Position numbers and translations under genes: made by a program
NCBI GenBank assembly: GCA_018657885.1
Contig: JABHWG010000082.1
Span: 190 to 64,189 of the forward strand
Direction of reading: 5' to 3'
Length of the DNA stretch: 64,000 bases
Source of the DNA: Pelagibacteraceae bacterium
GTDB taxonomy: Bacteria > Pseudomonadota > Alphaproteobacteria > HIMB59 > GCA-002718135
Shown: positions 24,216 through 63,914 of the stretch, in pieces
Position numbering within the stretch: position 1 is the first letter of the stretch
Layout of the letters: each line of letters opens with the position of its first letter
The notes under the pieces: generated by a model
The model's input: only the letters and a program-made list of their open reading frames with translations
Database searches by the model: none
What the model was told of the DNA's origin: nothing

Positions 24216-24229
24216 AATATTATTTAACT

Positions 24230-25719: not shown

Positions 25720-25731
25720 AGGAGTTTAATA

Positions 25732-28160: not shown

Positions 28161-28174
28161 TGAAAGGTTAATTA

Positions 28175-28885: not shown

Positions 28886-28892
28886 GGTAATT

Positions 28893-29216
28893 ATGGCAGA
28901 AGGTACACAGCAACATCCACTAAAAATTTATTTTTTTGTATGGACACTTCTTTTCGTGCTTAGCGCATTCTCTTATTGGGTTGATTGGTACGGATTTGAA
29001 AGTTTTACTAGGTGGGGTTTGATCATGTTATTTATGATTCTTAAAGCAGGCTTTATTTGTGCAATTTTTATGCATTTGTATTGGGAACGTCTACCTATTA
29101 TTGCAGCTATTCTACTCCCATGTTCAGCAATATTAGTATTTGTATTCATTATGTGGCATGAGTCTTATTGGACATTAATAGTAAGAAGAATTTATTTTGC
29201 TATTACTGGATCTTAG
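28893..29216 (+). CDS. prokaryotic oxidase subunit IV-like small membrane protein
   Basis: I prefer the ATG at 28893 (MAEGTQQHPLKIYFFVW...), which is preceded by GGTGAGG at 28881-28887. The track start at 28836 overlaps coxC. The protein has three TM helices, a CyoD/CtaF-like size, and the matching operon position. Confidence 0.7.
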   Translation: MAEGTQQHPLKIYFFVWTLLFVLSAFSYWVDWYGFESFTRWGLIMLFMILKAGFICAIFMHLYWERLPIIAAILLPCSAILVFVFIMWHESYWTLIVRRIYFAITGS

Positions 29217-29233
29217 GATCTATTGAATCTTAA

Positions 29234-33526: not shown

Positions 33527-34441
33527 ATGAAATTAGGAATTTTAACAGCACCTTTTGAGAATAAAACATTAGAAGAAGTAGCTGATTGGGCTGAAAAAAG
33601 CAGTTTCCACGCCCTTGAAATTGCATGTTGGCCATTGTCAAATGATAAAAAAAGACGATATGCTGGAACAGCTCATATTGATGTTGCAAATATTTCAGAA
33701 ATGCAAGCAAGTGAAATTGTAGAATTTTTATCTAGTAAAAATATAACTATATCTGGATTAGGATATTATCCAAATCCACTTCATCCAGATCCTGAACATC
33801 GAAAAGATATTTTTGATCATTTAAAAAATATAGTTGATTGTGCAAAAAAATTAAAAGTTCCTGTTGTTAATACCTTTTGTGGTGGAGATGCAAAATTAAA
33901 TATAGATGAAAACTGGAAAAGAGCTCAAGAAATTTGGCCAGAATTTATCAAATACACAACAGATCAAGGTGTTCAATTAGCTTTTGAGAATTGCCCAATG
34001 ATATTTAGTTATGATGAGTGGCCAGGTGGACATAACATAGCTTATTCCCCTAATATTTGGAGAAGAATTATTGAAGAATGGAACGGAGCAGTTGGAATGA
34101 ATTTTGATCCAAGTCATTTAATTCTTCAAATGATTAATCAAAAAAAATTTATTTCTGAATTTGGCCCGCACATTAAACATGTACATGCAAAAGATTTAAC
34201 GATTGATGCCGACGGATTATATGAAAATGGTATTTTGTCAAAAGGGATGGGCTGGCAGGTTCCTAAAATGCCAGGACTTGGTGATGTAGATTGGTCTGTT
34301 TTTTTCTCTGAACTTTTAAAGGTAGGTTATGAAGGATCAATTATTATTGAGCATGAAGATAGAAATTTTGAAGAAACAGAAGCTCTACTTAAAGAAGGTT
34401 TTATTCTGGCAAGAGATAATTTAATTCCTTATCTTAAATAA
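33527..34441 (+). CDS. sugar phosphate isomerase/epimerase (xylose-isomerase-like TIM barrel)
   Basis: 304 aa with LEIACWP, LAFENCP, NFDPSHL and IIIEHEDRNFE. Confidence 0.85.
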   Translation: MKLGILTAPFENKTLEEVADWAEKSSFHALEIACWPLSNDKKRRYAGTAHIDVANISEMQASEIVEFLSSKNITISGLGYYPNPLHPDPEHRKDIFDHLKNIVDCAKKLKVPVVNTFCGGDAKLNIDENWKRAQEIWPEFIKYTTDQGVQLAFENCPMIFSYDEWPGGHNIAYSPNIWRRIIEEWNGAVGMNFDPSHLILQMINQKKFISEFGPHIKHVHAKDLTIDADGLYENGILSKGMGWQVPKMPGLGDVDWSVFFSELLKVGYEGSIIIEHEDRNFEETEALLKEGFILARDNLIPYLK

Positions 34442-43488: not shown

Positions 43489-44469
43489 ATGGAAGTTAAT
43501 TTAGACAAATGGTATAAGTGTGAGATAGATAAAAAAGAGTTTAAAGAACTCTCTAAAAAATCTGATTGGCAGGGTTTTAAACACATTATTATCTATTTTT
43601 CTTTTTTAGGACTATTTGGTTATTTGGCTTTTGCTACATGGGGTACCTGGTGGTCTTTATTGTTTTTTTTAATATACGGAAATATATGGGGTTGCAGTGA
43701 TGCCATATGGCATGAAACAGGTCATAGAACAGCATTTAAGTCTAAATTTTGGAATGACCTCTTTTATTATATTGCAAGTTTCATGGATAATTTTGAACCT
43801 ATAAGGTGGAGATATTCACATTATCATCATCATACTTATACAATATTTACTGATCCAGTAGATTTCGAAATTCATGTTAAAAAACCAACTGACTTATTAA
43901 TTTTCTTTACTCATTATATTCCATTTTCTGGTTTTATTTTTTTTAAAAACTCCCTTCAATGGGAGACAATTAAACATGCTTTTGGAGTAACTACTGAAGT
44001 AATGAAAGTTTGTATTCCTCAGAATGAAGTTTCCAAATGTCGTTGGTCAGCAAGAAGCCATGTTTTTATTTGGGCTTTAACAATTTTTTGTTCTGTATAT
44101 TTCCAAACATGGTTACCAGTTTTATTTATTGTGCTTCCTAATTTTTATGGAAAGACATTAGTTATGTTAATGGGACTTACTCAGCATGCTGGATTACAAG
44201 AAGATATTAAAGATCATAGGCTAACAACTAGAACAGTTTATTTAAATCCAATATTCAGTTTTTTGTATTGGCATATGGAATATCATGTTGAACATCATAT
44301 GTTTCCACAGGTGCCATCACATAATTTAAAAAAGTTACATGCTTTGATTAAGGATCAAATGCCAGCAGCTAGAAAAGGTTTGTGGGGTGCATATAAAGAA
44401 ATTGTTCCTGCTTTAGTTAAACAAGCTAAAGATCCAAAATATAAAATACCTTTAGCAGTCCCTAACTAA
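43489..44469 (+). CDS. membrane di-iron oxygenase, fatty acid desaturase/AlkB superfamily (paralog D1)
   Basis: 326 aa with two pairs of TM helices and His boxes HETGH, HYHHH and HVEHH, plus GLTQHAGL (reminiscent of the AlkB NYxEHYGL block). It is divergent from the system A SBP. Confidence 0.85.
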   Translation: MEVNLDKWYKCEIDKKEFKELSKKSDWQGFKHIIIYFSFLGLFGYLAFATWGTWWSLLFFLIYGNIWGCSDAIWHETGHRTAFKSKFWNDLFYYIASFMDNFEPIRWRYSHYHHHTYTIFTDPVDFEIHVKKPTDLLIFFTHYIPFSGFIFFKNSLQWETIKHAFGVTTEVMKVCIPQNEVSKCRWSARSHVFIWALTIFCSVYFQTWLPVLFIVLPNFYGKTLVMLMGLTQHAGLQEDIKDHRLTTRTVYLNPIFSFLYWHMEYHVEHHMFPQVPSHNLKKLHALIKDQMPAARKGLWGAYKEIVPALVKQAKDPKYKIPLAVPN

Positions 44470-46040: not shown

Positions 46041-47618
46041 TTATGAAAAATTATATTTTTTTAACAATTCATGATGGTTACTCATATCATCTATTACGTT
46101 ATGATAAATACTCCGCCAAACATCAAAAAACTCACTATACATTTGGTGGTTTTGCATATTAGGTTCAAATGTCTCTTTGACTTTTACTATATCTTTAATA
46201 CTTTCAAGAGGATTTGAATAAAATCCAGCACCAACAGCAGCTAAAATTGCATCACCAAGTGGGGCTGCTTCAGGAGGAAAGCCTCTTTCTTCAGATTTTC
46301 CTACATCAGGTAAATCTAATGGCAAACCCGTGACATCAGATGTTATTTGATTCCAAAGTCTGCTTTTTGTAGGCCCTCCATTTAATGTAAATTTGTCAAT
46401 TTTTGCGCCAGCTTCTTTTGCTATTTTTACATTTGAATTACAATCAAATGCAACACCTTCAATCACTGATCTTATAAAATGCGCTTTAGAGGTCGTTGGT
46501 CTTATACCAAAAAACATGCCTGAAGCAGATGAGTTCCAATTAGGTGATAATGTGTTACCTAAATATGGAAAATACATCAAACCATCTGAGCCAGGTTTAA
46601 TTGTTTGTGCTTGCTTCGTTAAAAGATCAAATACATTTAAATTTTTCTCCTTAGCAATTTGCATTTCTAATTCAGCAAAATTATTCTTATACCAATTCAA
46701 AGACGCTCCAACAAATGCCATTGGTCCATCAAACATTGTCATACCTGGTATTACTGAAGTCCACTTTAATATTCTAAATTCATTAATTCTTTGAGATGTA
46801 GGTATCATGACACCAATATTTGCACCTGTTCCCATAGAGTAAAAAGCTTGACCTACCTCTACAACACCACAGCCAAGGGCTGCACAACTAATATCAGTTC
46901 CACCCGCGACTACTACAGCACCTTCTTTAATTCCTGTTTCTTCAGAAGCTTTTTTTGTTACCTTACCAACAACTTCATGAGAATTAAATATTGGGGGATA
47001 TTTTTCAATTGGTATTCCCAAACCTTTAGCTACTTCATCATTCCATTTTCCTGCTTGATATTCATAAGGATAAAATAATTGGGCATCACCATGATTCATA
47101 GTAAATTCGCCACACATTTTATAAGTACAATAACCAGACGGTGAAACTAGCTTATGTGTTTTTTCAAAATTTTTTGGCTCATGTTTTTTCATCCATAGAG
47201 CTTTGGGTTCTACAAACCAGGGTGCAACTCTGTTACCATTTATATTATTTATTTTTTCTTCACCTATAGTATTTCTAATATCTGTGCATTCTTCCTCAGA
47301 TCTTGAGTCCATCCAGATCATTCCAGGTCTAACTGGATTTCCTTCTTTATCTATAGGTAGCATTACTCCAACTAAGCCTGATAAAGATACTCCTGAAATT
47401 TTGTCACCATAAGAACCTTGTTTAAAACAATCTTTAACTGCATCTACTACAGCTTTCCAATAATTATCCCCTTCTTGTTCAGCATACCCAGGCTTTGGAT
47501 GAAAAAGTGGATGTTCTTTTAATGAGTGAGCAACAACCATGCCTTTGTCTACGTCAAGTACTGAAGCTTTAACTCCAGTTGTACCTATATCAATTCCTAG
47601 TGTATATTTTTCAATCAT
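46041..47618 (-). CDS. FGGY family carbohydrate/polyol kinase
   Basis: I prefer the start at MIEKYTLGIDIGTTGVKASVLD (47618), which follows GGAGGA at 47625-47630. About 525 aa, with FGGY N- and C-domain patterns (GGTDISCAALG, NGGPTKSRLWNQI). Confidence 0.85.
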   Translation of the reverse strand: MIEKYTLGIDIGTTGVKASVLDVDKGMVVAHSLKEHPLFHPKPGYAEQEGDNYWKAVVDAVKDCFKQGSYGDKISGVSLSGLVGVMLPIDKEGNPVRPGMIWMDSRSEEECTDIRNTIGEEKINNINGNRVAPWFVEPKALWMKKHEPKNFEKTHKLVSPSGYCTYKMCGEFTMNHGDAQLFYPYEYQAGKWNDEVAKGLGIPIEKYPPIFNSHEVVGKVTKKASEETGIKEGAVVVAGGTDISCAALGCGVVEVGQAFYSMGTGANIGVMIPTSQRINEFRILKWTSVIPGMTMFDGPMAFVGASLNWYKNNFAELEMQIAKEKNLNVFDLLTKQAQTIKPGSDGLMYFPYLGNTLSPNWNSSASGMFFGIRPTTSKAHFIRSVIEGVAFDCNSNVKIAKEAGAKIDKFTLNGGPTKSRLWNQITSDVTGLPLDLPDVGKSEERGFPPEAAPLGDAILAAVGAGFYSNPLESIKDIVKVKETFEPNMQNHQMYSEFFDVWRSIYHNVIDDMSNHHELLKKYNFS

Positions 47619-47619
47619 A

Positions 47620-48612
47620 TTATATCCTCCCAAAATTATTTTTTCTTTGGTCTAACATAACCACTAAGATTATGATTATACCAACAACTATATTTCTATG
47701 CCAAGTATTTAATCCCCACATTGAAAATAAACTAAATAGAGCGCCCATAACAATTGTTCCTAAAAAGGCTCTATATGGTGACCCTCTACCGCCTGTTAAA
47801 CTTACTCCACCAACGACAGCAAATGCAATTGCAGTCAGTTCGAAACCAACTGCTAACGGAGCATCAACTGTTTGTAATCTTGATGAAAATAATATCCCTG
47901 CAACAGATGCGCAAAAACCACTCATAATAAATGCTATAATAACCCAAAAAGTCACATTAATTCCCGCTAGCCTAGCAGTCTTTTCATCTCCACCAATCGA
48001 ATAAATTCTTCTTCCAACCAAAGTATATCTCATAATTATACTAGCTAAAATTGTCATTAAAACATATATCCAGGTTGAAAAAGGAATATAAAATAAATTT
48101 AATGTTCCCATCCATGTATAAGTTGGAATTTGTAAATAATAAGCATGACCATGCGTTAATACATAATTTAATCCCCATAAAGCTTTCATCATTGCAAGTG
48201 TCATAATAAACGATGTAATTTTGCCATACATAACTCCAATACCATTTATTAAACCAATAAGAATTCCTGTTAATAAAGATATAACAACTATAAAAGCCGC
48301 ACTGTTTGCATATTGATTACCCCTAACAAGAACTTTAAAATCAAACATATCACCAAAAAAAGCTAAAGAAGAAACAGCTAAAATTGGACCAAAAATTGTT
48401 AATGACCCCACAGATAAATCAATTCGTGAAACTAAAAATACAAAAGAAACTCCAAGTGCCAGCAGTCCAGGTACAGCCATGTTTCTAATCATATTTTGAA
48501 TGTTTATTATAGTAAAAAAATACTCACTTGTAAAAGTTCCAACAAGACAAATTAAAATAAATACAAAAAGTAAAAAATGATTTTTTAATATTTGTTTAAA
48601 GTTGATTTTCAT
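47620..48612 (-). CDS. sugar-type ABC transporter permease, system B (second)
   Basis: 330 aa polytopic protein with RIDLSVGS and GGVSLTGGRGS. It belongs to the RbsC family. Confidence 0.88.
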   Translation of the reverse strand: MKINFKQILKNHFLLFVFILICLVGTFTSEYFFTIINIQNMIRNMAVPGLLALGVSFVFLVSRIDLSVGSLTIFGPILAVSSLAFFGDMFDFKVLVRGNQYANSAAFIVVISLLTGILIGLINGIGVMYGKITSFIMTLAMMKALWGLNYVLTHGHAYYLQIPTYTWMGTLNLFYIPFSTWIYVLMTILASIIMRYTLVGRRIYSIGGDEKTARLAGINVTFWVIIAFIMSGFCASVAGILFSSRLQTVDAPLAVGFELTAIAFAVVGGVSLTGGRGSPYRAFLGTIVMGALFSLFSMWGLNTWHRNIVVGIIIILVVMLDQRKNNFGRI

Positions 48613-52257: not shown

Positions 52258-53091
52258 TTAAGAAATTAATTTTTTAAATGCTTCAAGCTCTTTTTTATTA
52301 ATATTTACAAGCTCATTACTCTTCGGAAATGTTTGATTTTGAACGGCAGACTTAAAACTTTTTATAGAATTAACTCTTTCTCTATAAATTTCATTCTTTA
52401 ACTTTAGAATATTTCCAAAAGATCTTGCATGTCTTGGAATATTTTCTTGCTCCCCACAGATATCATTTTGAAATAAATAAATTATATCTCCGCTTAAACC
52501 AGAGCCTAAAGAACTGGTAATTAGAGATGTTTTTTTACTTATTTCTAGCATTACCTCTTCTAAAATAATTTCACACTCTGCTGAAAAAGCTCCAGCACTT
52601 TCCATTGTTTTGAATTCATTAAATAATTTATAAGCTTCTTCCGCAGTCTTTCCAATTGCCCTTAAACCACCTTTCCATGATGATTTTCTTGGCACTAATC
52701 CCAAGTGGCACATAACAGGAATATCTTCCTTAGATAACATTTCAACTATGTGTGGACCCCTTGCAGTATAAATTTGATCAGCGCCTACTGACATTGCACG
52801 AAATGCTTCATTTAAAACTTCAGTAGTTGTTGGAAATAAAGCAAGATCTATAGTTGCAGTCAAAAAAATATCCGGCGCTCCCTTTCTTATTTCATCTATA
52901 AAAGGTGATTTGCACAATAACATATCTATGCCCGCTTCTTTAGCAGCTGAAGCTTCTTCAATATTAGTGGCAGTTGTTTGTAGGAATTTTTTCTTACCCT
53001 TGTTTTCTAATAAATCTGATACAGTAAGATTTCTGTCAGCAAACTTACCTCCCCAAGTATATAATTTTTTCATGAATATGTTAATTATCAT
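52258..53091 (-). CDS. PanB-like protein (ketopantoate hydroxymethyltransferase family), divergent paralog P1
   Basis: The C-terminal half aligns by eye with PanB (MCHLGLVPRKSSWKGGLRAIGKT; SSLGSGLSGDIIYLFQNDICGEQENIPRHARSF). The N-terminal region is shorter than in P2-P4. The start is uncertain (53091 or 53073). Confidence 0.72.
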   Translation of the reverse strand: MIINIFMKKLYTWGGKFADRNLTVSDLLENKGKKKFLQTTATNIEEASAAKEAGIDMLLCKSPFIDEIRKGAPDIFLTATIDLALFPTTTEVLNEAFRAMSVGADQIYTARGPHIVEMLSKEDIPVMCHLGLVPRKSSWKGGLRAIGKTAEEAYKLFNEFKTMESAGAFSAECEIILEEVMLEISKKTSLITSSLGSGLSGDIIYLFQNDICGEQENIPRHARSFGNILKLKNEIYRERVNSIKSFKSAVQNQTFPKSNELVNINKKELEAFKKLIS

Positions 53092-53204: not shown

Positions 53205-54170
53205 ATGGAAATTAATACAGAATATCAATGGCCCTATCATGGTTCAAAGTTAATTTCTAAAGACAAATTAAGACCTTTTTTGAAAAGAAATAATATTAGT
53301 GGTATAATACATCTTTGTATACATTTAGGACTAATACTGTTCTCGGGGATTTTAATCCATTTTTCAGCAAATATATTCCTTAAGATATTAGTAATGACAG
53401 CTCATGGAAGTTTCATAGCTTTTCTATATGCTGGACTTCACGAGTGTATACATAAATCTGCTTTTAAAAATAAGAGATTAAATGAAATTGTAGGTTATTT
53501 TATAGGTTTTGTGCTTCTAAGATCTTTTCTAAATGGAAGATATAGACACATGGCGCATCATACTTTTACACAACATCCAGAAAAAGATCCTGATAAAGTT
53601 GATTTTCCCTCAGGATATATCGATTATCTTAAGCATGTAACCAGTTTTACTTTATGGATTAGAATAATAGAAAACTTATTTAGACATTCTTTGGGTAAAA
53701 CAAGTGAATCTGAAAAAAACTATATTCCAGAAAGTGAAATCAAATCATTGATATTTGAATCAAGAATGATGTCAATTGGATACATTTTAATAATCTTTCT
53801 TTCAATTTATTTTAGTTCAACTTTTTTTCTTATTTATTGGTTTATACCAAGAATACTAGGTGAGCCTTTCTTAAGATTAGTAAGAATGGTAGAACATACA
53901 GGAAAAGATGAAACAGCGGACATGATACATAATACTAGAACATCTTTTCCAAGCGCATTTTTAAAATTTCTTTATTGGAATATGCCTTATCATATTGAGC
54001 ATCATTTATACGCCAGTGTGCCATTCCATAAACTTCCAAAATTTCATAACTTAATTAAGCCTCACACAGATGAAGTCGAGTCATCAATTTTATCAGTCCA
54101 TATAGAAATTCTTAAGCAGATATGGAAAAATAAAAAAAATAAGAAAAAAGAGAATTTATTAAGCATATAA
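53205..54170 (+). CDS. membrane di-iron oxygenase, fatty acid desaturase superfamily (divergent paralog D2)
   Basis: 321 aa with His boxes HECIH, HMAHH and HIEHH, TM helices, and a Lys-rich tail. It is divergent from P1. Confidence 0.8.
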   Translation: MEINTEYQWPYHGSKLISKDKLRPFLKRNNISGIIHLCIHLGLILFSGILIHFSANIFLKILVMTAHGSFIAFLYAGLHECIHKSAFKNKRLNEIVGYFIGFVLLRSFLNGRYRHMAHHTFTQHPEKDPDKVDFPSGYIDYLKHVTSFTLWIRIIENLFRHSLGKTSESEKNYIPESEIKSLIFESRMMSIGYILIIFLSIYFSSTFFLIYWFIPRILGEPFLRLVRMVEHTGKDETADMIHNTRTSFPSAFLKFLYWNMPYHIEHHLYASVPFHKLPKFHNLIKPHTDEVESSILSVHIEILKQIWKNKKNKKKENLLSI

Positions 54171-54217: not shown

Positions 54218-55045
54218 TCATTTTTTTTCAACAAAGTTTAGAAATTGATCATACTCTTTTGCATTTATTGATACTGTAATTTTTGGATCATCAAATTTTT
54301 TATTTTCAGTATCACTAATAAATTCTTTATATGCTGCTACTCTTTCTTTATGCAGTCTATCAAACTCTTTATTAAAGTTTTTATAAATTCTTGAATGTCT
54401 TGGTATGTGACCTGTGTTATAACCCAATATATCTTGAGAAAATAAATACTGACCATCACATAGTGACCCACTTCCCATTGATATGGTTAAAAGTTTAACT
54501 TTTTTAGTAATAATTTCTGCTACCTTTGTTGGAACTACTTCTAATTCAACTGCAATAGCTCCAGCATCATCTAATTCTAGAGTATGTTCCAATACTCCCA
54601 TAGCTTCTTTTGCAGTTTTGCCAATAGCTCTAAAGCCACCTAGCCAATTAGCATGTCCTGGGATTAAACCTACATGACTAATTACAGGAACTTTTTCTCT
54701 ATAAAGAGCTTTAATAATATTTGTACTATTATTGGTATAAAAAGAGTCACACCCTATTGATAACAGTTTGTAAGCCGCTCTAACTGCTTCATCTTCTGTA
54801 GCAAATGATCTTTCCGGTGCTGCACTCATTAAATGAGTGTTAGGTGCTGCCTCTCTAATTCTTTTGACATCATCAAACGTTCCATAAATACCGTGTTGAG
54901 GCATGCCATAAGCAGTCACAATCATATCTATGCCTGCTTCTTCAGCAGCAATAGCTTCTTCAACATTATTTACATACACGTCATGAATTTGTTTTTTTCC
55001 TTTTAATTTAAGCAAATCATAAACAGTTAATTTTTTTTTATTCAT
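54218..55045 (-). CDS. PanB-like protein, paralog P2 (last gene of ABC operon C)
   Basis: 275 aa with SHVGLIPGHANWLGGFRAIGKT, AVELEVVP and SMGSGSLCDGQYLFSQDILGYNTGHIPRHSRIY. There is a 12-nt gap after the ATPase gene. Confidence 0.8.
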   Translation of the reverse strand: MNKKKLTVYDLLKLKGKKQIHDVYVNNVEEAIAAEEAGIDMIVTAYGMPQHGIYGTFDDVKRIREAAPNTHLMSAAPERSFATEDEAVRAAYKLLSIGCDSFYTNNSTNIIKALYREKVPVISHVGLIPGHANWLGGFRAIGKTAKEAMGVLEHTLELDDAGAIAVELEVVPTKVAEIITKKVKLLTISMGSGSLCDGQYLFSQDILGYNTGHIPRHSRIYKNFNKEFDRLHKERVAAYKEFISDTENKKFDDPKITVSINAKEYDQFLNFVEKK

Positions 55046-55057
55046 TTAATCTCCTAA

Positions 55058-55792
55058 TTATCCAATTAATTTTATGAGTTCGTTAACTGTTGTATCCTCT
55101 TTAGGCATATCACAAACTTTCTCACCCCTTGCCATACCAACAATTCTATCGGCAATCTCATGAACATGGTATAAATTGTGACTGATAAAAATACTTCCAA
55201 TGCCGATTGATTTAAGACTTTGAACATATTCCAAGACTTTTAGAGTTTCTTTAACTGATAGATGGTTTGTTGGTTCATCTAAAATTAACATTTTAGATTT
55301 AAAGTACATCGATCTTGCAATTGCAACTCCCTGTCTTTCCCCACCTGATAATTCTTTTACTGGAATATGAGGTGATCTTAAATCCAAACCTACATCTTTT
55401 ATAGCTTTCATAGATTCTAAATTCATTTTTTTCTCATTTAAGATCGATAGAGAGCTTAATCCAAATTTTACTGGCTCCCTCCCAATAAATACATTTCTAG
55501 CAATAGACATTTCTTGAAACATGGTGTTGTATTGATGAATAGTTTCTATTCCTAAGTCCATGGCCATTTTAGGATTTTTGATATTAACTTTATGACCTTC
55601 AAAATAAATTTCTCCATTGTCTAACCCGTGCACACCACAAATAATTTTTATTAGAGTTGATTTACCTGCACCATTATCGCCAATTAAACCAATGACTTCT
55701 CCTTTGTTTATTTCCAAATCAACATTTTTTAAGGCGTGAAGATTTCCATACCATTTATTTAATTTGCTACACTTTAATAAATCTTTTGACAT
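55058..55792 (-). CDS. ABC transporter ATP-binding protein (single NBD), system C
   Basis: 244 aa with GDNGAGKST, LSGGERQG and LILDEPT. Confidence 0.88.
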   Translation of the reverse strand: MSKDLLKCSKLNKWYGNLHALKNVDLEINKGEVIGLIGDNGAGKSTLIKIICGVHGLDNGEIYFEGHKVNIKNPKMAMDLGIETIHQYNTMFQEMSIARNVFIGREPVKFGLSSLSILNEKKMNLESMKAIKDVGLDLRSPHIPVKELSGGERQGVAIARSMYFKSKMLILDEPTNHLSVKETLKVLEYVQSLKSIGIGSIFISHNLYHVHEIADRIVGMARGEKVCDMPKEDTTVNELIKLIG

Positions 55793-55808
55793 AATAATAA
55801 ATTACAAC

Positions 55809-56789
55809 TTAATCATCATCTTTCAACCTAATTTTATCAGCTGAATTTTTTGTAAGAGTATTTAAGATAACAGCAATTACAATAAGTGCTCCGACTGCAA
55901 ATTTAAACCAATTCCCGTCAATTCTCGAAAGTATTAAAATATTATCAATTATTAAAAGTAAAAATGTTCCAATTAGTGCTCCAAATGCAGATCCAATACC
56001 TCCCATAAGTGAAGCTCCGCCAACAACTGCAGAAGCTATGGCTTGTAATTCTAATCCCTGACCCAGGCTTGTAATAACAGTTTTAATTCTGAAGGATTGT
56101 ATTATTCCAGCAAAACCTGCAAGAACTGAACATATAATAAAGCAAGTTGTTTTGACCCAAAAAGTATTTATTCCAAGGTCTTTAGCTGCTTCTTTATTTT
56201 CTCCTGTGGCATATATCCAACTGCCAAAATTAGTTTTTTTAAGTATATAATTGCAGATCAAAGCTATGCCTATTAGCCAAAATATTGAAACTCTTAACAT
56301 GTCAACTCTTCCCACTAACCAATCAGTAGGTAAATCTTTAGGGACACTTGGGGGAAAGCCACCACTGATAACTACTGCTATACTTCTTGCCATAAACAGC
56401 ATACCTAAAGTAGCAATGAATGATGGAATCTTAAATTTAACAGTTACAATTGCATTTACAAATCCAATAAATGCAGCAGCCAATAAACCTAATAAAATAG
56501 ATACGATATAATGTAATTCATAATCAGCAATTAATATCATAGTAACAATAGGTGAGACGGCAAATACTGACCCTACTGATAAATCAAATTCTCCTGAAAT
56601 CATAAGTATGGTGATACCTAAAGCTACCAGAGCTAACTCTGGGTAGGTAGATAGTATAACCATAAAATTTCTTGAATTTAAAAAACGTTCATTAACAAAA
56701 GTAAAGACAACTATAAGAAAAATAAAAATAGCTAAGGCGCTGAACTCTGGTCTAGAAAGAAGGGATTTGATTTTGTTTTTGCTAAACAT
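55809..56789 (-). CDS. sugar-type ABC transporter permease, system C
   Basis: 326 aa polytopic protein with GEFDLSVGS and GGASLMGGIGS. Confidence 0.88.
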   Translation of the reverse strand: MFSKNKIKSLLSRPEFSALAIFIFLIVVFTFVNERFLNSRNFMVILSTYPELALVALGITILMISGEFDLSVGSVFAVSPIVTMILIADYELHYIVSILLGLLAAAFIGFVNAIVTVKFKIPSFIATLGMLFMARSIAVVISGGFPPSVPKDLPTDWLVGRVDMLRVSIFWLIGIALICNYILKKTNFGSWIYATGENKEAAKDLGINTFWVKTTCFIICSVLAGFAGIIQSFRIKTVITSLGQGLELQAIASAVVGGASLMGGIGSAFGALIGTFLLLIIDNILILSRIDGNWFKFAVGALIVIAVILNTLTKNSADKIRLKDDD

Positions 56790-56800
56790 GTTTAAAAATT

Positions 56801-56831
56801 ATTTGCGGTCAAATTAATATTGACCGCAAAT
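56801..56831 (-). promoter_or_regulatory. intercistronic hairpin after the SBP gene of system C
   Basis: atttgcggtca / tgaccgcaaat form a perfect 11-bp stem with a 9-nt loop. It is relatively GC-rich in an AT-rich spacer. Confidence 0.5.
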
Positions 56832-56848
56832 ATATGATTATTATAATT

Positions 56849-57817
56849 TTATCTTACGCCCATTTCAATATATTTACGAACGTCTGCAACATCTGAAGGA
56901 TATACAAATGCTTTACCTGTATTTACATCCCATGCGCTTAATCCAAATTCTTTCATTAAATACATTTGAAGTATAGGTAGGTATCCTTGAAGATATGGTT
57001 GCTGATCTATTGTTAAGTGAACATAACCTTCGTCCATTTCGTCCATAACTATATCAACAAGATCAAACATTCCCATTAATAATTCATTGGGTTTATATCC
57101 TAGATCTCTTAAGCAGTTTCCTGCTCCAGCTCCCCAAAATCCAGCATCAAAATAAGCAGTTGTTTCAGGATGTCCTTGAACATAAGCACAAATTCTTTGG
57201 CCAGTAACACTTGTATCAAGACCAGAGTCAATAGTATCCCATGTAACTTTTTTGTTTGGATTAGCAGTTTTATATTCTTCCATAAATTTTCTAACACCCC
57301 CAATACGAGCTTCCGCCCAACTTTGTCCAGGTGCTGAAAGACCTAAAAGTACATGCGTATCACCATCAGGAAAAGACTTTGATAACTCTTTACCTAATTC
57401 ATAACCTGCTTGGAATAAATCTTGTCCTACAAATGCTAATCTAGCATTACCTTCTGCTCCCTCAGAATCATCAACGTTAGTTGTGATTACGGGAATTCCA
57501 GCATCTATTGCATTTTGTACTGCTTCATCAAACATATTATCTTCAACTATAACAAGTGAAATACCGTCAATACCTTGTTCAACTAAAGCCTCAAGATTAG
57601 TTAATTGCATTTGTAAATTTCCATTTTCTTGATTGAAAACTAACTGACAATCTACTTGTAAAGTGTTGCATGCATCATCCATCCCTCTTTTGATACCTTG
57701 CCAAAAAGTGTTACTTGTATCAACTTGAGTTAGGACACTAAATTTATATTTTGCACTTGCAGGTACAGCTATCAATAAAGCTGCAAAGAATAATGCAAAT
57801 AATTTAAATATTTTCAT
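56849..57817 (-). CDS. periplasmic PBP type I sugar-type substrate-binding protein, system C
   Basis: I prefer the start at MKIFKLFALFFAALLIAVPASA (57817), which follows GGAGG. The two-lobe sugar-SBP pattern resembles the system A SBP (..IDQQPYLQGYLPILQMYL..). Confidence 0.85.
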   Translation of the reverse strand: MKIFKLFALFFAALLIAVPASAKYKFSVLTQVDTSNTFWQGIKRGMDDACNTLQVDCQLVFNQENGNLQMQLTNLEALVEQGIDGISLVIVEDNMFDEAVQNAIDAGIPVITTNVDDSEGAEGNARLAFVGQDLFQAGYELGKELSKSFPDGDTHVLLGLSAPGQSWAEARIGGVRKFMEEYKTANPNKKVTWDTIDSGLDTSVTGQRICAYVQGHPETTAYFDAGFWGAGAGNCLRDLGYKPNELLMGMFDLVDIVMDEMDEGYVHLTIDQQPYLQGYLPILQMYLMKEFGLSAWDVNTGKAFVYPSDVADVRKYIEMGVR

Positions 57818-57988
57818 TTTACCTCCATATAAATATTTCATATATGAAACTTAAACATATACGCAATTTAATTAAAAGGGTTTTTACGAAATTTTATGTA
57901 AAATTTTTTAGTATGAAATACATACTTAATGAAAATATGTGATCTTTTTTCACTTGAAAAATAATATTTACGATATAATTTACTTCAA

Positions 57989-59020
57989 ATGGTTGTAATT
58001 AGAGATACTAATATATCTGGTGACTTAGAAGAAAAGCTTGGTAAAAATATTTGGTGGAAACCAGATATTGATAAAAAAGAGTTTAAAAAACTTTGTGTCA
58101 AGAGAACCATGCCTGGAATAATTTACACCAGTATGTATTTCATAGCCTTGGCAGGCTCTGGTTATTTAGCTTATTATACCTGGGGTACTTATTGGACCAT
58201 TTTATGGTTTTGGATTTATGGAACCATATATTCTTTTAGTGGTGCATATGATCATGAAAGCAGACATAGAACTTTATTTAAGCAAAGGTGGTTAAATGAA
58301 TTTTTCCAATACATTTTTTCTTTTATGACTAACTTTGAGCCAGTACGATGGAGATGGACTCATACTCTACACCATAGTTATACTCTTCATACAAAAGAAC
58401 CTTTGGATTTTGAAATTCAAGTTGATAGACCAAGTAAACTTTTTAAATATTTTGTTAGCTTTATGCCTTTTGGCCCATTACTTTGGATTCATCAATCTTA
58501 TTTAGCAGAAACTTTAAAAAATTCCCTAGGTATCATGACACCAGTCATTGAAGACTGTGTTCCTAAAGAGCATCAATGGAAGGTTTTTCTTTCCTCTAGA
58601 ATACATATGCTTATATGGGCATCTATAATTATCTTATCAATTTACTTTAACACTATTCTCCCAGTTTTATTTTTTCTATTACCTACATTTTATGGAAATA
58701 CTTTTTTTGCACTATGTGGTTTAACTCAGCATGCAGGACTTGCATTTGATGTTAAAGATCACCGTGTAAATTCGAGAACGGTTATTTTAAATCCAATTCT
58801 TAGTTGGTTATATGTAAAGTTAGAATACCATCAAGAACATCATATGTTTCCACAAGTACCCTGGTACAACTTACCTAAACTGCACGAGATGATTAAAGAT
58901 CAAATGCCTAAACCTAATAAAGGTTTAATCAGTGCCTACAGAGATATCATTCCTGCCATTATCAAACAAGCTTATGATCCAAACTTTGTTCCAGATAGAA
59001 AGCTTCCAAAATCTGTTTAA
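57989..59020 (+). CDS. membrane di-iron oxygenase, fatty acid desaturase/AlkB superfamily (paralog D3)
   Basis: 343 aa with His boxes HESRH, HTLHH and HQEHH, plus GLTQHAGL. It is clearly paralogous to D1 and D4 (shared blocks NFEPVRWR, LPxFYGNT, DHRxxxRTVxLNP, MFPQVP, IKDQMP). Confidence 0.85.
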   Translation: MVVIRDTNISGDLEEKLGKNIWWKPDIDKKEFKKLCVKRTMPGIIYTSMYFIALAGSGYLAYYTWGTYWTILWFWIYGTIYSFSGAYDHESRHRTLFKQRWLNEFFQYIFSFMTNFEPVRWRWTHTLHHSYTLHTKEPLDFEIQVDRPSKLFKYFVSFMPFGPLLWIHQSYLAETLKNSLGIMTPVIEDCVPKEHQWKVFLSSRIHMLIWASIIILSIYFNTILPVLFFLLPTFYGNTFFALCGLTQHAGLAFDVKDHRVNSRTVILNPILSWLYVKLEYHQEHHMFPQVPWYNLPKLHEMIKDQMPKPNKGLISAYRDIIPAIIKQAYDPNFVPDRKLPKSV

Positions 59021-59115: not shown

Positions 59116-60348
59116 ATGAATAAAATATCAAAAATATTAATCCTTGGCGGGGGTCAAGCTGCTGCATATGCTGCAAAAGAGATTAGATCCATTGATATTA
59201 AGTCAGATTTAACTATTATTAGTGAAGAAAAATACTTACCATATGAAAGACCACCTTTATCTAAAGATTATATTTTAGATAAAGTTACATTTGATGATCT
59301 TCTTTTTTTTCCAGAAAATTTTTATAAAGAAAATAAAATTAATTTTATTGGCAGTACCCAAATAAACAAAGTTGATTTTGATAATAAAAAAATTAGCAGT
59401 TCACTAAAAAATTATGATTATGATAAATTATTAATAGCTACAGGTTCTACTAATAGGCATTTAGTGATAAGTGGTAAAACAATTTTACCTGAAGAGAATA
59501 TAATTTATTTAAGAAATTTTGAAGAGAGTAATATTTTAAAAAATAAAATTAATGAGGCTAATAATATTACAATTATCGGAGGTGGTTTTATAGGTTTAGA
59601 AATTGCTTCATCAGCAGTACAGAAAGGAAAAAATATTACAATTCTTGAGAGAGCTAGTCAGTTGATGGGTAGAGTGATCCCATTAGAGATAGCTAATTTA
59701 ATTCAAGATAAACATAAGGCTGTAGGTACTAAAATTCATTTAAATGCTGATATTAAAGATATTAAAAAAATTAATAATTCATATGAAATTAATCATAATA
59801 ATCAAATTTTATCTGCTGATTTAATTATTATAGGTGTAGGCTCTTTACCTAATACAGAAATTTTTCAAAACACCTCTTTAAAAATTGATAATGGAATTAT
59901 CACCGATGAATTTTCAGCAACTTCAATAGAAGATGTGTATGCAGCAGGTGATGTGTCAAATTTTTATCATCCCTTTTATCAGGAATATATGCGCCTTGAG
60001 TCATTTAAACATGCGCAAAATCATGGAATAAACGCTGGTAAAAATTTAATAGGACAAAAAACTTCTTACAATAAAATACCTTGGATGTGGTCTGATCAGT
60101 TTAATTTAAATTTACAACTAACAGGCATTTGTAATAATTATGATGCTACTGCACAAAGAGGCTCAACTCTTGAAGAAGGAATAATTTATTTTTTTCTTAA
60201 AAATAGAAAAATAGTGGGTGCCTGTGGTTTGGGCGTAGGAGGAAAAATAGGAAGAGATATTCGGTTAGCTGGAAAACTTTCAGAAAAAAAAACTAAAGTA
60301 ACTAACGAATTACTTTCAGATAAAAATAATAAGTTAAATAAAATTTAA
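59116..60348 (+). CDS. FAD-dependent ferredoxin--NAD(P)+ reductase (pyridine nucleotide-disulfide oxidoreductase family)
   Basis: 410 aa with the FAD-binding ILILGGGQAAAYAA, the NAD-binding ITIIGGGFIGLEIASS, AAGDV, and a C-terminal reductase domain. It resembles putidaredoxin, rubredoxin and Rieske-ferredoxin reductases. Confidence 0.85.
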   Translation: MNKISKILILGGGQAAAYAAKEIRSIDIKSDLTIISEEKYLPYERPPLSKDYILDKVTFDDLLFFPENFYKENKINFIGSTQINKVDFDNKKISSSLKNYDYDKLLIATGSTNRHLVISGKTILPEENIIYLRNFEESNILKNKINEANNITIIGGGFIGLEIASSAVQKGKNITILERASQLMGRVIPLEIANLIQDKHKAVGTKIHLNADIKDIKKINNSYEINHNNQILSADLIIIGVGSLPNTEIFQNTSLKIDNGIITDEFSATSIEDVYAAGDVSNFYHPFYQEYMRLESFKHAQNHGINAGKNLIGQKTSYNKIPWMWSDQFNLNLQLTGICNNYDATAQRGSTLEEGIIYFFLKNRKIVGACGLGVGGKIGRDIRLAGKLSEKKTKVTNELLSDKNNKLNKI

Positions 60349-60354
60349 CTTATT

Positions 60355-60747
60355 TTAGTAATAATCATATAAAGATTCAGCTTTTTTGTTCTTAATATTT
60401 TTTATTAAAATTGTTTTATTTTTTTCTTCCCATTTAAACAAGTTATTAACTACTGGTTTAAATAGAAGACCGAAAGAAGTAATGCTATATTCTACTTTTC
60501 TTGGGAAACCTTTAAATTGTTTTTTTTTAATTAATTTATCTTTTTCTAACTGTTTAAGTAACTTTGTGAGTAATTGTTGATTTATGTTTAATAAATTATT
60601 CTTAATTTCTCCAAAACGCATTTTTTTTTGGATTAAATAATATATTATTTCAAACTTAAATTTATTATCCAAAATATAAAATATTTTTTTAAAAGGATAA
60701 TTATGATTGTTTTTTTTTAACATTAAGTATTTTAGTATGATTTTCAT
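60355..60747 (-). CDS. HxlR family winged-helix transcriptional regulator
   Basis: 130 aa with ..KFKFEIIYYLIQKKMRFGEIKNNLLNINQQLLTKLLKQLEKDKLIKKKQFKGFPRKVEYSITSFG. It is divergent from the Rieske ferredoxin operon. Confidence 0.8.
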   Translation of the reverse strand: MKIILKYLMLKKNNHNYPFKKIFYILDNKFKFEIIYYLIQKKMRFGEIKNNLLNINQQLLTKLLKQLEKDKLIKKKQFKGFPRKVEYSITSFGLLFKPVVNNLFKWEEKNKTILIKNIKNKKAESLYDYY

Positions 60748-61167: not shown

Positions 61168-61995
61168 ATGAGTAGAACAAAATTAACAGTTAAAGATTAT
61201 TTACAATCTAAAGGTAAAAGACAATTAAGTGTTATGTTTGTACATAGCGCAGAAGAAGCTTCAGCTGCTGAAGAAGCAAATATTGATATGATTTGCACTT
61301 CTCATGATGCTCCTCAATTTGGAGTATATAATTCATTTGATGAATTAAAAAGAATTCGTGAAGCAGCACCAACATGTTTTATGCAATCAGGTGGAGCTGT
61401 GCGTGTTGCATCAGAATATGAAGCTATGAAATTATCACACAAGTATTTAGATATTGGAGCCGATGTTATTTATGGAGGTAACTGGAGTTATAAATGGCTG
61501 AGAGCACTTCGAGATGAATACATTCCTATAAATAGCCATGTTGGACTAGTTCCTGGAAATGCAACATGGATCGGTGGATTTAAAGCTCAAGGCAAAACAG
61601 CTGATGAAGCAATTAAAGTGCTACAACATACTCTTGAGCTACAAGATGCTGGTGTTGTTGGAGTTGAGTTTGAGGTTGTGCCTCCAAAAGTTGCAGAAAT
61701 TGTAACTAAAAAAGTAGATATCATAACTCTTTCAATGGGAAGTGGATCTGGTTGTGATGGTCAGTACTTATTTGCTAATGATGTTCTTGGTTACACAGAT
61801 GGACACACTCCACGTCACGCAAGAATTTATAGAGATTTTAAAACAGAATATGCAAAACTTCAGGTTGAGAGAGTAAATGCTTTTAAAGAGTTTCATGCTG
61901 ATACCATAAATAAAAAATTTAATGACCCCAAAATTACTGTTGGCATAGAAGACAAGGAGTATGAAAAGTTTTTAAAATTATCAGAGAAATTTTAA
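61168..61995 (+). CDS. PanB-like protein, paralog P3
   Basis: 275 aa, with an AGGAGG RBS 7 nt upstream. It has SHVGLVPGNATWIGGFKAQGKT, VEFEVVP and SMGSGSGCDGQYLFANDVLGYTDGHTPRHARIY. It is closest to P2. Confidence 0.8.
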   Translation: MSRTKLTVKDYLQSKGKRQLSVMFVHSAEEASAAEEANIDMICTSHDAPQFGVYNSFDELKRIREAAPTCFMQSGGAVRVASEYEAMKLSHKYLDIGADVIYGGNWSYKWLRALRDEYIPINSHVGLVPGNATWIGGFKAQGKTADEAIKVLQHTLELQDAGVVGVEFEVVPPKVAEIVTKKVDIITLSMGSGSGCDGQYLFANDVLGYTDGHTPRHARIYRDFKTEYAKLQVERVNAFKEFHADTINKKFNDPKITVGIEDKEYEKFLKLSEKF

Positions 61996-62000
61996 TTAAA

Positions 62001-63017
62001 ATGTTTGCCGGCGAAGTTGATTTAAATACTTGGTATAAACCAAATATTGATAAAAAAATATTGAAAGGATTGTCTAAACGATCTGATCAAAAGGGCTTTT
62101 TAGATTTTTTGTTATTTATTATAATGTTAGTTATATCAGGATATTTATGTATCATTTCATGGGGGACATGGTGGTCTCTCCCTTCGTTGTTATTATATGG
62201 GAATATTTTTTATTGTAAGGTGATCAGTGTACAACATGAAACAAATCATGAAACTTATTTTAAATCACGTTGGTTAAATAAAATATTTTATAATATAACG
62301 TCGTTGTTAGGTGGTTTTGAATCTGTCCGATGGAAATGGAGTCACTTTCATCATCATACTTATACTATTTTTACTCATGAAGAAGTATATGATTATGAGA
62401 ATAACAGTCCTAGACCAACTGAGCCTATAAGATTTTTATTAAATTTTCTTCCATTAGGCCCAATAATTAATATACAAAAAGTAAGACATTTTACGCACTT
62501 TGAAATAATCAAACATGCATTAGCTATAATTTCACCTGTAGTGAAGTTAACCGTGCCAGAAAAAGAAATTACGATGGTAATTAATAGCTCACGTTGGTAC
62601 GTTTTGTTCTGGTTAGCAATTATTATTGTGTCAATTTATTTTAATTCTTGGCTCCCAATCATTATGATTATTTTACCTCCATTTTATGGAAATACTATTT
62701 TAATGATTTGTAGCATGACTCAACATGCAGGTTTAGCTGATAACGTTAAAGACCATAGAAAAAGTACTAGAACTGTAATTCTAAATCCTTTTTTTAGCTT
62801 CTTATATTCCAATATGGAATATCATATTGAGCATCATATTTTTCCTAAAATACCCTGTCATAATTTAAAAAAATTTCATGAAGTAGTTAAAGATCAAATG
62901 CCTCTACCTTTAAAAGGTGTTTTTCATGCCTATAAATCAATAATTCCTGCAATATTTAAGCAAGCAAAAGATAAAAACTATTTTATTGATGTACAAATAC
63001 CAAATATTAAAATTTAA
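62001..63017 (+). CDS. membrane di-iron oxygenase, fatty acid desaturase/AlkB superfamily (paralog D4)
   Basis: 338 aa with His boxes HETNH, HFHHH and HIEHH, plus SMTQHAGL. It starts 5 nt after P3. Confidence 0.85.
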   Translation: MFAGEVDLNTWYKPNIDKKILKGLSKRSDQKGFLDFLLFIIMLVISGYLCIISWGTWWSLPSLLLYGNIFYCKVISVQHETNHETYFKSRWLNKIFYNITSLLGGFESVRWKWSHFHHHTYTIFTHEEVYDYENNSPRPTEPIRFLLNFLPLGPIINIQKVRHFTHFEIIKHALAIISPVVKLTVPEKEITMVINSSRWYVLFWLAIIIVSIYFNSWLPIIMIILPPFYGNTILMICSMTQHAGLADNVKDHRKSTRTVILNPFFSFLYSNMEYHIEHHIFPKIPCHNLKKFHEVVKDQMPLPLKGVFHAYKSIIPAIFKQAKDKNYFIDVQIPNIKI

Positions 63018-63080: not shown

Positions 63081-63914
63081 ATGAGAAAAAAAATAACTGT
63101 AAAAGATCTGCAAAATTTTAAAGGTAAAAAAAAATTAGTTTGTATTCTTGTTAAGAATGAAGAAGAAGCTCTTGCAGCTGATAAAGTAGGCTTTGAAATG
63201 TTAGCAACAGGCATAGCGGGAGAATATAAAAATGATGATGATCATCCTAATTTTAGTCAGTTAGTAAAAATGAGAGAAGCTGCTCCAACAGCTTTCATGC
63301 ATTGTGGGGCGCCAGACAGTTTGATACCAACTTTAGATGAAGCTAAAAAGTTTTCTTTTAAAATATTAGAACATGGTTTTGATATGCTTTATTGTAATAC
63401 GAGGTACGATCTTATTAATAATTTATATAAGGAAGGAATTCCCTGCCTTGGTCATGTTGGTCTTGTACCACCTAAAAGGACCTGGACTGGTGGTTTTGTG
63501 GCCGTAGGTAAAACTTCATCAGAAGCAATGATGATTTATGATCAATGTTTAAAAATTGAAGAAGCAGGAGGTGTTGCAATTGAAATGGAATGCGTTCCTT
63601 ATAAAATAGCAGAAGCAATTTCAAAAAAAGTAAAACCAACAGTAATGTCAATGGGTAGTGGGCCAGGGTGTGATGTTGAATATGTTTTTGGTTGTGATAT
63701 TTTAGGAACAACAAAAGGCCGCATACCTCGTCATGCAAAAAAATATAGAGATTTTCAACAAGAATTTGCAAGATTACAGATAGAAAGAGAAAATGCATTT
63801 AAAGAATTTTATGATGATGTGCATTCCGGAATCTTTCCTGAGAAAAAAAATATTGTAGAAATTGAAGAAAATGAGCTAGATATTTTTTTAAATAATTTAG
63901 AAAAAAGAAATTAA
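63081..63914 (+). CDS. PanB-like protein, paralog P4
   Basis: 277 aa with GHVGLVPPKRTWTGGFVAVGKT, IEMECVP and SMGSGPGCDVEYVFGCDILGTTKGRIPRHAKKY. Confidence 0.8.
   Translation: MRKKITVKDLQNFKGKKKLVCILVKNEEEALAADKVGFEMLATGIAGEYKNDDDHPNFSQLVKMREAAPTAFMHCGAPDSLIPTLDEAKKFSFKILEHGFDMLYCNTRYDLINNLYKEGIPCLGHVGLVPPKRTWTGGFVAVGKTSSEAMMIYDQCLKIEEAGGVAIEMECVPYKIAEAISKKVKPTVMSMGSGPGCDVEYVFGCDILGTTKGRIPRHAKKYRDFQQEFARLQIERENAFKEFYDDVHSGIFPEKKNIVEIEENELDIFLNNLEKRN

Follow-up and report, generated by a model that had tools for sequence, protein, structure and literature searches.

Why would a streamlined SAR11 genome keep four genes that resemble panB, the gene for ketopantoate hydroxymethyltransferase (EC 2.1.2.11)? 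The question is raised by a 64,000-nucleotide (nt) stretch of a Pelagibacteraceae genome (NCBI GenBank assembly GCA_018657885.1, contig JABHWG010000082.1, positions 190 to 64,189 of the forward strand; hereafter the window, G+C content about 29%), which encodes the PanB-like protein P3 and its paralogs P1, P2 and P4. The initial annotation, made from the letters alone, had favoured a new substrate or chemistry over redundancy among four panB copies, and profile scores below the family cut-offs, a replaced active site, a catabolic gene context and the published genetics of a rhizobial homologue all bear this out. P1-P4 are almost certainly not PanB and have changed their substrate. Linkage of such genes to oxygenase genes, which the initial annotation had not seen, proved to be the main clue to function.

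61168-61995, plus strand: P3, PanB-like protein of 275 amino acids, defined by its open reading frame (ORF), Pfam match, alignments and an AlphaFold2 (AF2) model
63081-63914, plus strand: P4, PanB-like paralog, 44% identical to P3, at the end of a Rieske ferredoxin-P3-Des3-P4 run
54218-55045, minus strand: P2, PanB-like paralog, 57% identical to P3, directly downstream of and co-directional with sugar ATP-binding cassette (ABC) transporter genes
52258-53091, minus strand: P1, PanB-like and the most divergent of the paralogs (35% identity with P3), transcribed divergently from the oxygenase gene Des1

All four proteins match PF02548 (Pantoate_transf) far above its gathering threshold of 28.7 bits, with scores of 101 (P1), 138.6 (P2), 127.8 (P3) and 113.9 (P4). 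A profile of 35 subfamily sequences aligned with E. coli PanB over 238 columns (hhalign probability 99.9), and the AF2 model of P3 (pLDDT 93.7, pTM 0.85) formed a complete (beta/alpha)8 barrel with eight strands. When this model was compared with the PDB using Foldseek, the top 28 matches were all PanB structures (3VAV, 1M3U, 1O66/1O68, 1OY0 and 3EZ4; TM 0.61-0.70), the best of them at a TM of about 0.70 and an E-value of 1e-19, followed by members of the isocitrate lyase/phosphoenolpyruvate mutase (ICL/PEPM) superfamily. The PF02548 scores of P1-P4 and the barrel type of the P3 model thus place the proteins in the PanB-fold family. The length of the profile alignment and the complete barrel indicate that homology spans the entire protein, and P1-P4 are predicted to be full-length PanB-fold proteins whose N-terminal half is merely less conserved. 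The initial annotation had located the homology in the C-terminal half: the C-terminal blocks are indeed homologous and keep the catalytic Glu181, but the similarity is not limited to them. The P3 strings it quoted are all present in the ORF, the E. coli PanB strings it set against them match the actual sequence (NC_000913 b0134), and its view that P1 is still more divergent agrees with the identities listed above.

We mapped the PanB active site onto the paralogs by three methods, namely HMMER alignment to 1M3U, MAFFT alignments of 42 and 98 sequences, and hhalign comparison of the 35-sequence profile with E. coli PanB. The resulting correspondence for P3 was as follows.

E. coli PanB D45: H46 in P3, replaced
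E. coli PanB D84: G75 in P3, replaced
E. coli PanB K112: Y102 in P3, replaced (a gap in the HMMER alignment)
E. coli PanB E114: G104 in P3, replaced (Y102 in the HMMER alignment)
E. coli PanB H136: H124 in P3, kept
E. coli PanB E181, the base: E169 in P3, kept

All five structurally solved PanBs are identical at D45, S46, D84, K112, E114, H136 and E181, and we take D45, D84 and E114 to form the Mg2+ environment, as in 1M3U. None of the Mg2+/2-oxo-acid residues D45, D84, K112 and E114 is present in P1-P4: position 45 (E. coli numbering) is occupied by Ser in P1, Tyr in P2 and Ile in P4, position 84 by Thr, Ala and Gly, respectively, and position 112 by Tyr in all three. The initial annotation had found the Asp/Asp/Glu set not obviously present in P2, P3 and P4; the three alignments, including the comparison of profiles, agree on its replacement in P3, and the paralogs P1, P2 and P4 lack it as well. 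The register is further confirmed by proteins that bridge to canonical PanB, since P0258, P0261 and P0265 retain the VGD motif and K112, and P0258 and P0265 also D84. In PanB a divalent metal is required to enolise the keto-acid substrate, and the enzyme interconverts a C-bound hydroxymethyl group and 5,10-methylene-tetrahydrofolate (5,10-methylene-THF) (review PMC7770189). Judged from the alignments, the Mg2+/2-oxo-acid half of this site is lost in P1-P4, and the half formed by beta5-beta8, with H136 and E181, is kept.

Conserved features and breadth of the subfamily

The replacement of the canonical site is not peculiar to the window. Searching 1.84 billion representative proteins with a profile returned 201 representatives at E <= 1e-30, and a scan of one genome per species revealed at least 494 encoded relatives, with hosts in SAR11, Rhizobiales, Rhodobacterales, Chloroflexota (Caldilineaceae, Anaerolineales), Actinomycetota (Ilumatobacteraceae), Trueperaceae, SAR324, Lentisphaeria and Myxococcota. 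Proteins identical to P3 are on record for Pelagibacteraceae, from 110 contigs, and related clusters at 90% identity hold up to 1,165 member sequences each from marine metagenomes. Statistics for the subfamily were drawn from 87 sequences in the loci fetched, equivalent to 41 non-redundant clusters at 80% identity. By E. coli numbering, K112 is replaced by Tyr in 98% of them, V179 by Glu in 100%, I212 by Tyr in 95% and D84 nearly always by Gly; H136 and E181 (H124 and E169 of P3) are retained in 100% and remain invariant when the four window paralogs are added, giving 91 sequences. E30, W134, F202 and H217 (P3 numbering) are further invariants specific to the subfamily, so that the new invariants, numbered as in P3, comprise these together with Y102, E167 and Y200. 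Its signature, consisting of G84, Y112, E179, E181 and Y212 (E. coli numbering) with E30, W134 and H217 (P3 numbering), is at least 88-100% conserved across the 41 non-redundant members. P3 carries it entire, with few deviations in the other paralogs (Ala at 84 in P2; Thr at 84, Leu at 138, Ile at 171 and Leu at 190 in P1). On this alignment evidence the replacement is systematic and conserved, marking a defined subfamily rather than decay. For enzymology, a TIM-barrel enzyme of aldolase type in which the metal/keto-acid site was discarded, the other half preserved and a new set of invariants added would be a clean case of active-site repurposing.

Where canonical PanB has G-D-S-L, at positions 44-47, the subfamily is hypervariable (3.1-3.4 bits against a mean of 1.5), yet these positions are constant inside each orthologue group, as with T-S-H-D-A in all P3 orthologues. 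Such variation between groups and constancy within them suggests that these positions are specificity determinants. Asp or Glu at position 45 is retained in certain other clades of the subfamily, and D84 or K112 in none. One clade, from metagenome-assembled genomes (MAGs) of soil and freshwater Alphaproteobacteria (loci L038, L045, L046, L048, L049, L054 and L069), has Glu at the D45 position and no oxygenase neighbour, its PanB-like gene lying instead beside genes for an alpha/beta hydrolase, a DUF2332 protein and an M17 peptidase; this clade may have a different role. We also noted a homologue 72% identical to P3 on a 300-kb contig binned as Verrucomicrobia bacterium UBA6053 (locus L020, 8001-8822), where the usual neighbours were not detected and which could reflect horizontal transfer or misbinning. 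Among long representatives, P0121 (542 amino acids) consists of two PanB-like domains fused in tandem in a single polypeptide. Folate-related or oxygenase domains were not found fused to PanB-like domains among the long representatives (P0121, P0145, P0232, P0181, P0189 and others), and those other than P0121 are probable chimeras or frameshifts.

The four paralogs score well below the cut-offs of both NCBIfam panB models, at 74-111 bits against 207.55 for the equivalog TIGR00222 and 85-124 bits against 272 for NF001452. Neither panC, panD nor panE was found near P1-P4, whose neighbours encode oxygenases, a ferredoxin, a reductase, ABC transporters and regulators. Strong purifying selection acts on all four paralogs, which are kept as functional genes, with dN/dS against orthologues of 0.05-0.17, values that are approximate, dS being near saturation. 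Direct genetic evidence comes from Rhizobium etli CFN42, whose plasmid p42e carries a 'second panB', RHE_PE00443, described as having no detectable metal-binding domain (Villasenor et al. 2011, PMC3082293). The R. etli panB mutant is auxotrophic despite this gene, and its constitutive expression does not complement the mutation (PMC3082293); the complementation experiment proposed in the initial annotation has thus given a negative answer in published work, for this homologue only. We located RHE_PE00443 at 23818-24633 on the minus strand of locus L086. Its identity to P2-P4, 41-43%, is similar to that between P3 and P4; it has the signature residues and belongs to an operon for a LacI regulator, an FA_desaturase-family protein, a MocE ferredoxin, a reductase dependent on flavin adenine dinucleotide (FAD) and the PanB-like protein. 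In the public records, the PanB-like genes of loci L081-L086 and L090 and of clusters P0001-P0120 are all annotated as 3-methyl-2-oxobutanoate hydroxymethyltransferase, often with a Gene Ontology term for pantothenate biosynthesis. This label is a probable systematic misannotation, which across hundreds of genomes and abundant SAR11 metagenome clusters would inflate predicted vitamin B5 autonomy.

Linkage to oxygenases and purU

Neighbouring genes in the related loci were placed by tblastn mapping. An oxygenase gene was found within 2.5 kb of the PanB-like gene in 26 of the 41 clusters, drawn from SAR11, Rhizobiales, Rhodobacterales, Chloroflexota, Actinomycetota, Deinococcota and SAR324; the oxygenases belonged to three unrelated families, FA_desaturase (18 clusters), FA_hydroxylase (8) and PhyH (4). 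Frequent further neighbours were a Rieske ferredoxin, a reductase, a GFO/IDH/MocA dehydrogenase, a xylose-isomerase-like TIM barrel protein, a LacI regulator and sugar ABC genes. A recurrent gene order is MocD-MocE-MocF-PanB-like, seen in Mesorhizobium, Rhizobium, Sinorhizobium, Pararhizobium, Allorhizobium, Nitratireductor, Ilumatobacteraceae and Caldilineaceae, the Sinorhizobium genes being SMb20817-20821 (PMC11387232). Other arrangements preserve the association: the PanB-like gene of Mesorhizobium sp. 131-2-1 has a sterol-desaturase-family oxygenase on one side and the ferredoxin and reductase of that oxygenase on the other, both PanB-like copies of Cypionkella abut an FA_hydroxylase gene, and the module of Marivivens, a marine genus, lies beside iolG, iolC and iolD. 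As these loci had been chosen through their PanB-like gene, the reverse co-occurrence was judged from plasmid counts and four sampled MocD loci only. Plasmid matches to MocD-like and PanB-like proteins were nearly equal in number within each genus (144 and 142 in Rhizobium, 85 and 87 in Sinorhizobium, 9 and 9 in Ensifer), and in four of five plasmid records present in both lists the two genes were about 2 kb apart.

A second association links the PanB-like gene to purU, which encodes formyl-THF deformylase and is commonly found in operons for THF-dependent demethylation. In two moc-type loci, on plasmid pRLa11 of R. leguminosarum A1 (L082, 9001-10737, together with MocA, MocB and a regulator of the MocR type) and on pSymA of S. 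meliloti KH35c (L087, 11770-13508), mocF is followed by the PanB-like gene and then by purU; direct adjacency of purU to the PanB-like gene was also seen in loci L039, L041, L062 and L077. The rhizopine literature describes the unit as mocDEF and mentions no PanB-like gene (PMC10107442), and in R. mesoamericanum mocDEF homologues and iol genes are induced by a root exudate in which pinitol is the chief component (PMC5789663). We consider functional coupling of the PanB-like proteins to oxidative demethylation probable.

The window contains the following neighbouring genes.

62001-63017, plus strand: Des3, MocD-like membrane di-iron oxygenase of the FA_desaturase family with three His boxes in its translation, beginning 5 nt past P3
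60828-61151, plus strand: MocE-family Rieske [2Fe-2S] ferredoxin leading the P3 operon (TIGR02377, 120 bits; cut-off 136)
60355-60747, minus strand: HxlR-family regulator (PF01638), divergent from the Rieske-P3-Des3-P4 operon
59116-60348, plus strand: MocF-like ferredoxin-NAD(+) reductase with Pyr_redox_2 and Reductase_C domains
57989-59020, plus strand: Des2, MocD-like FA_desaturase-family oxygenase
55058-57841, minus strand: CUT2-type sugar ABC transporter, with ATPase (55058-55792), permease (55809-56789) and binding protein (56849-57841)
53205-54170, plus strand: Des1, MocD-like FA_desaturase-family oxygenase paired with P1
51311-52195, minus strand: LysR-family regulator adjoining P1
40514-50963: upstream remainder of the island, with two further CUT2 sugar ABC systems and the two genes listed next
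46041-47633, minus strand: FGGY carbohydrate kinase
43489-44469, plus strand: fourth FA_desaturase-family oxygenase
33527-34441: xylose-isomerase-like TIM barrel gene

The genes for the Rieske ferredoxin, P3, Des3 and P4 share one direction and lie close together, separated by 16, 5 and 63 nt. Related SAR11 genomes have, after P4 or Des3, a gene of the FA_hydroxylase family (sterol-desaturase-like; about 10.7-11.7 kb in L001, with equivalents elsewhere); many of these genomes lack P4, which is thus an optional member of the operon. In other SAR11 genomes (L021-L028), orthologues of P2 have the Des2 orthologue as their conserved neighbour, and the LysR-P1-Des1 arrangement is retained in L014. 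The island holds three CUT2 sugar ABC systems in all; for the binding protein at 56849-57841 the best NCBIfam match is the rhizopine binding protein, at 111 bits, far under the cut-off of 420 (NF052284). We found no purU in the window and no GFO/IDH/MocA gene between its 37 and 64 kb positions.

HxlR of Bacillus subtilis responds to formaldehyde. The parallel is weak since the HxlR-family protein of the window has no cysteine, and we did not rely on it as a formaldehyde sensor; among the related loci, its gene occurs only in the window and L011. Elsewhere in the window, two adjacent plus-strand ORFs (27519-28160 and 28175-28885) both match COX3 (subunit III of cytochrome c oxidase); they belong to a cox operon (24874-30127) that includes a UbiA-family gene and is unremarkable in other respects.

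Candidate reactions

The best overall explanation, on which we are evenly divided, is that a non-PanB subfamily is paired with methyl-hydroxylating oxygenases and passes the one-carbon (C1) unit to folate. The loci would import and catabolise methylated sugars or cyclitols, substrates that we infer from the type of binding protein, the iol and moc contexts and the FGGY kinase. The partner oxygenases (membrane di-iron enzymes of the MocD/MocE/MocF type, FA_hydroxylase-type enzymes, and PhyH-type enzymes dependent on Fe and 2-oxoglutarate (Fe/2OG)) would hydroxylate methyl groups, converting an O-methyl ether R-O-CH3 to the hemiacetal R-O-CH2OH. The PanB-like enzyme would then run the folate half of the reverse PanB reaction, transferring the hydroxymethyl or formaldehyde unit to THF and yielding 5,10-methylene-THF and the free sugar or cyclitol R-OH; the C1 unit would be oxidised through the folate pathway, with purU in rhizobia, and toxic formaldehyde would not be released. 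The former metal-ligand loops (44-47 and 82-86), hypervariable between paralogs, may recognise either the R group or the cognate oxygenase, which would explain why a streamlined genome holds a separate, divergent paralog for each oxygenase. THF-dependent C1 transfer is suggested by the conserved half of the PanB site together with purU adjacency, and we hold this specific capture mechanism with a little less than even confidence. More tentative again is the wider proposal that the PanB-like proteins form an unrecognised class of folate-dependent C1-capture enzymes that dock functionally onto non-flavin oxygenases, which in SAR11 would make up four substrate-specific pairs and in rhizobia would provide the missing demethylation/C1 step.

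Several points weigh against this explanation. The adjacency of purU is confined to Rhizobiales-type loci and does not extend to the SAR11 window. About a third of the subfamily clusters lack an oxygenase neighbour, the soil alphaproteobacterial MAG clade among them; when the loci without a detected oxygenase were re-checked for other oxygenase types, a single weak PhyH match emerged (L031), and the remaining neighbours (alpha/beta hydrolase, DUF2332, UbiA and aldo-keto reductase) were unrelated. Conversely, no PanB-like gene lies within 9 kb of the MocD-like loci of Caballeronia sp. NK8 (L088) and Paraburkholderia largidicola (L089), both of which have the LacI-Des arrangement, followed by a Rieske ferredoxin gene in L088 only; the partner is thus dispensable for the oxygenase in some lineages. 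To our knowledge the folate site of PanB is not structurally defined, and retention of a 'folate half' is read from which half of the protein is conserved. Hemiacetals collapse spontaneously, and formaldehyde and THF react non-enzymatically, so that the need for an enzyme is not obvious. Finally, the new invariant Glu and His residues may build a different, non-canonical metal site with a different chemistry.

One alternative, which we regard as unlikely, would make the PanB-like protein a C-C lyase: the oxygenase would hydroxylate a methyl group, a GFO/IDH/MocA dehydrogenase would make the neighbouring ketone, and the PanB-like enzyme would remove the C-bound hydroxymethyl group by retro-aldol cleavage, with or without THF, for example from a C-methyl or branched cyclitol or sugar. 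This chemistry is the nearest to that of true PanB, ketopantoate being a beta-hydroxymethyl ketone, and the base E181 is retained; a GFO/IDH/MocA gene lies within 2.5 kb in 10 of the 41 clusters, the aromatic and acidic invariants W134, Y102, Y200, E30 and E167 resemble a carbohydrate pocket, and one paralog per oxygenase is consistent with substrate-specific recognition. Retro-aldol cleavage, however, requires stabilisation of an enolate, yet the metal ligands are gone and the subfamily has no specific invariant lysine, and in the moc-type rhizopine loci, where the context is documented best, the substrate group is an O-methyl ether rather than a C-methyl group.

We give slightly less credence to a folate-independent enzyme that catalyses some other reaction (an isomerase, a lyase or a hydrolase-like enzyme) on a sugar, a cyclitol or the oxygenase product, possibly with a new metal site formed by E30, E167, E169, H124 and H217. 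The ICL/PEPM superfamily, which includes PanB and supplies the next-best Foldseek matches, hosts many chemistries, and both the new invariant Glu and His residues and the clusters without an oxygenase neighbour fit such an enzyme. It accounts poorly for the large and specific part conserved with PanB (HxGLxP...GG(F/Y)(K/R)xxGK, AGA...ExVP and GxGxGxxxDGQ) and for purU adjacency in at least six loci, which points to a folate C1 flux.

It is improbable that the proteins are non-catalytic partners, pseudoenzymes that stabilise, assemble or regulate a membrane oxygenase complex. Their tight one-to-one pairing with oxygenase paralogs and the loss of the canonical catalytic metal site would suit such a role, but H136, E181 and the glycine-rich loops are invariant, new invariant polar residues stand at strand ends as is typical of an active enzyme, and the gene also occurs away from oxygenases. 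That P1-P4 are genuine but divergent ketopantoate hydroxymethyltransferases supplying pantothenate in SAR11, as the PF02548 scores and the PanB name on every public record would have it, can be dismissed with near certainty given the sub-cut-off panB scores, the absence of D45, D84, K112 and E114, the occurrence of four copies within catabolic operons of a streamlined genome and the failure of RHE_PE00443 to complement panB.

There is a realistic chance that the subfamily represents a new enzyme function. The pairing with oxygenases points to an unrecognised use of methylated sugars or cyclitols without release of formaldehyde. If C1 capture on folate is correct, SAR11, the most abundant marine heterotroph, would draw both methyl groups and carbon skeletons from the methylated carbohydrates of dissolved organic matter, and in rhizobia and the rhizosphere the proteins would provide the missing demethylation and C1 step in the catabolism of pinitol, ononitol and rhizopine. 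For synthetic biology, the mocDEF unit of rhizopine signalling may really comprise mocDEF, the PanB-like gene and purU.

Comparison with known systems

PanB itself (PDB 1M3U, 1OY0, 1O66, 3EZ4 and 3VAV) shares with the subfamily its fold, homology over the full length, H136, E181, the GG(F/Y)K.QGK loop, AGA..E.VP and G.G.G...DGQ. The subfamily differs in being only 23-27% identical to PanB, in its new invariants, in an insertion of about 7 residues in the C-terminal helix of most members, in its catabolic context and in the lack of PanB function in a homologue. RHE_PE00443 of R. etli and SMb20821 of S. meliloti belong to the same subfamily, with the signature and a LacI-MocD-MocE-MocF-PanB-like operon. 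It has thus been known since 2011 that a rhizobial 'second panB' is without the metal domain and fails to complement; that work (PMC3082293) did not report the linkage to oxygenases, the signature of the subfamily, the adjacency of purU or the SAR11 expansion. In full-text searches we found no description of the function, signature, oxygenase or purU linkage, breadth or fourfold SAR11 expansion of the subfamily, and only PMC3082293 touches on a member; a further match, to P. putida RB-TnSeq (random barcode transposon sequencing) literature, was irrelevant to the subfamily, and a paper on habitat specificity in SAR11 does not contain the relevant terms. What is chiefly new here is the gene context.

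The rhizopine system MocCABRDEF of S. meliloti L5-30 and R. leguminosarum resembles the window in its MocD-like oxygenase, MocE-family ferredoxin, MocF-like reductase and MocB-like binding protein. The MocD/MocE/MocF module can be recognised in the window, with the ferredoxin just under the TIGR02377 cut-off; MocB, MocR, MocA and MocC proper cannot. Unlike the rhizopine loci, the window lacks MocR, MocA and MocC, its regulators are of the LysR and HxlR families, and its binding protein is not rhizopine-specific. The missing moc genes and the low score of the binding protein indicate that the SAR11 substrates are probably methylated sugars or cyclitols other than rhizopine.

In marine Bacteroidota, a P450 6-O-methyl-D-galactose demethylase yields formaldehyde that is detoxified downstream (PMC6292453, PMC9400963). 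This system, too, is an oxidative demethylation of a methylated sugar by marine bacteria in which formaldehyde must be handled. It differs in using a P450 with its ferredoxin and reductase, and in relying on separate, general detoxification pathways, with no PanB-like protein encoded in the operon.

A parallel in logic is provided by the GcvT-like THF-binding modules of sarcosine oxidase, dimethylglycine dehydrogenase/oxidase and trimethylamine N-oxide (TMAO) demethylase, in which the C1 unit from oxidative demethylation is trapped on THF rather than freed as formaldehyde, as we propose for the PanB-like proteins. Those modules have the GcvT fold and are domains or subunits of N-demethylating flavoenzymes, whereas the PanB-like protein is a separate PanB-type TIM barrel, encoded beside di-iron or Fe/2OG oxygenases whose presumed targets are O-methyl groups.

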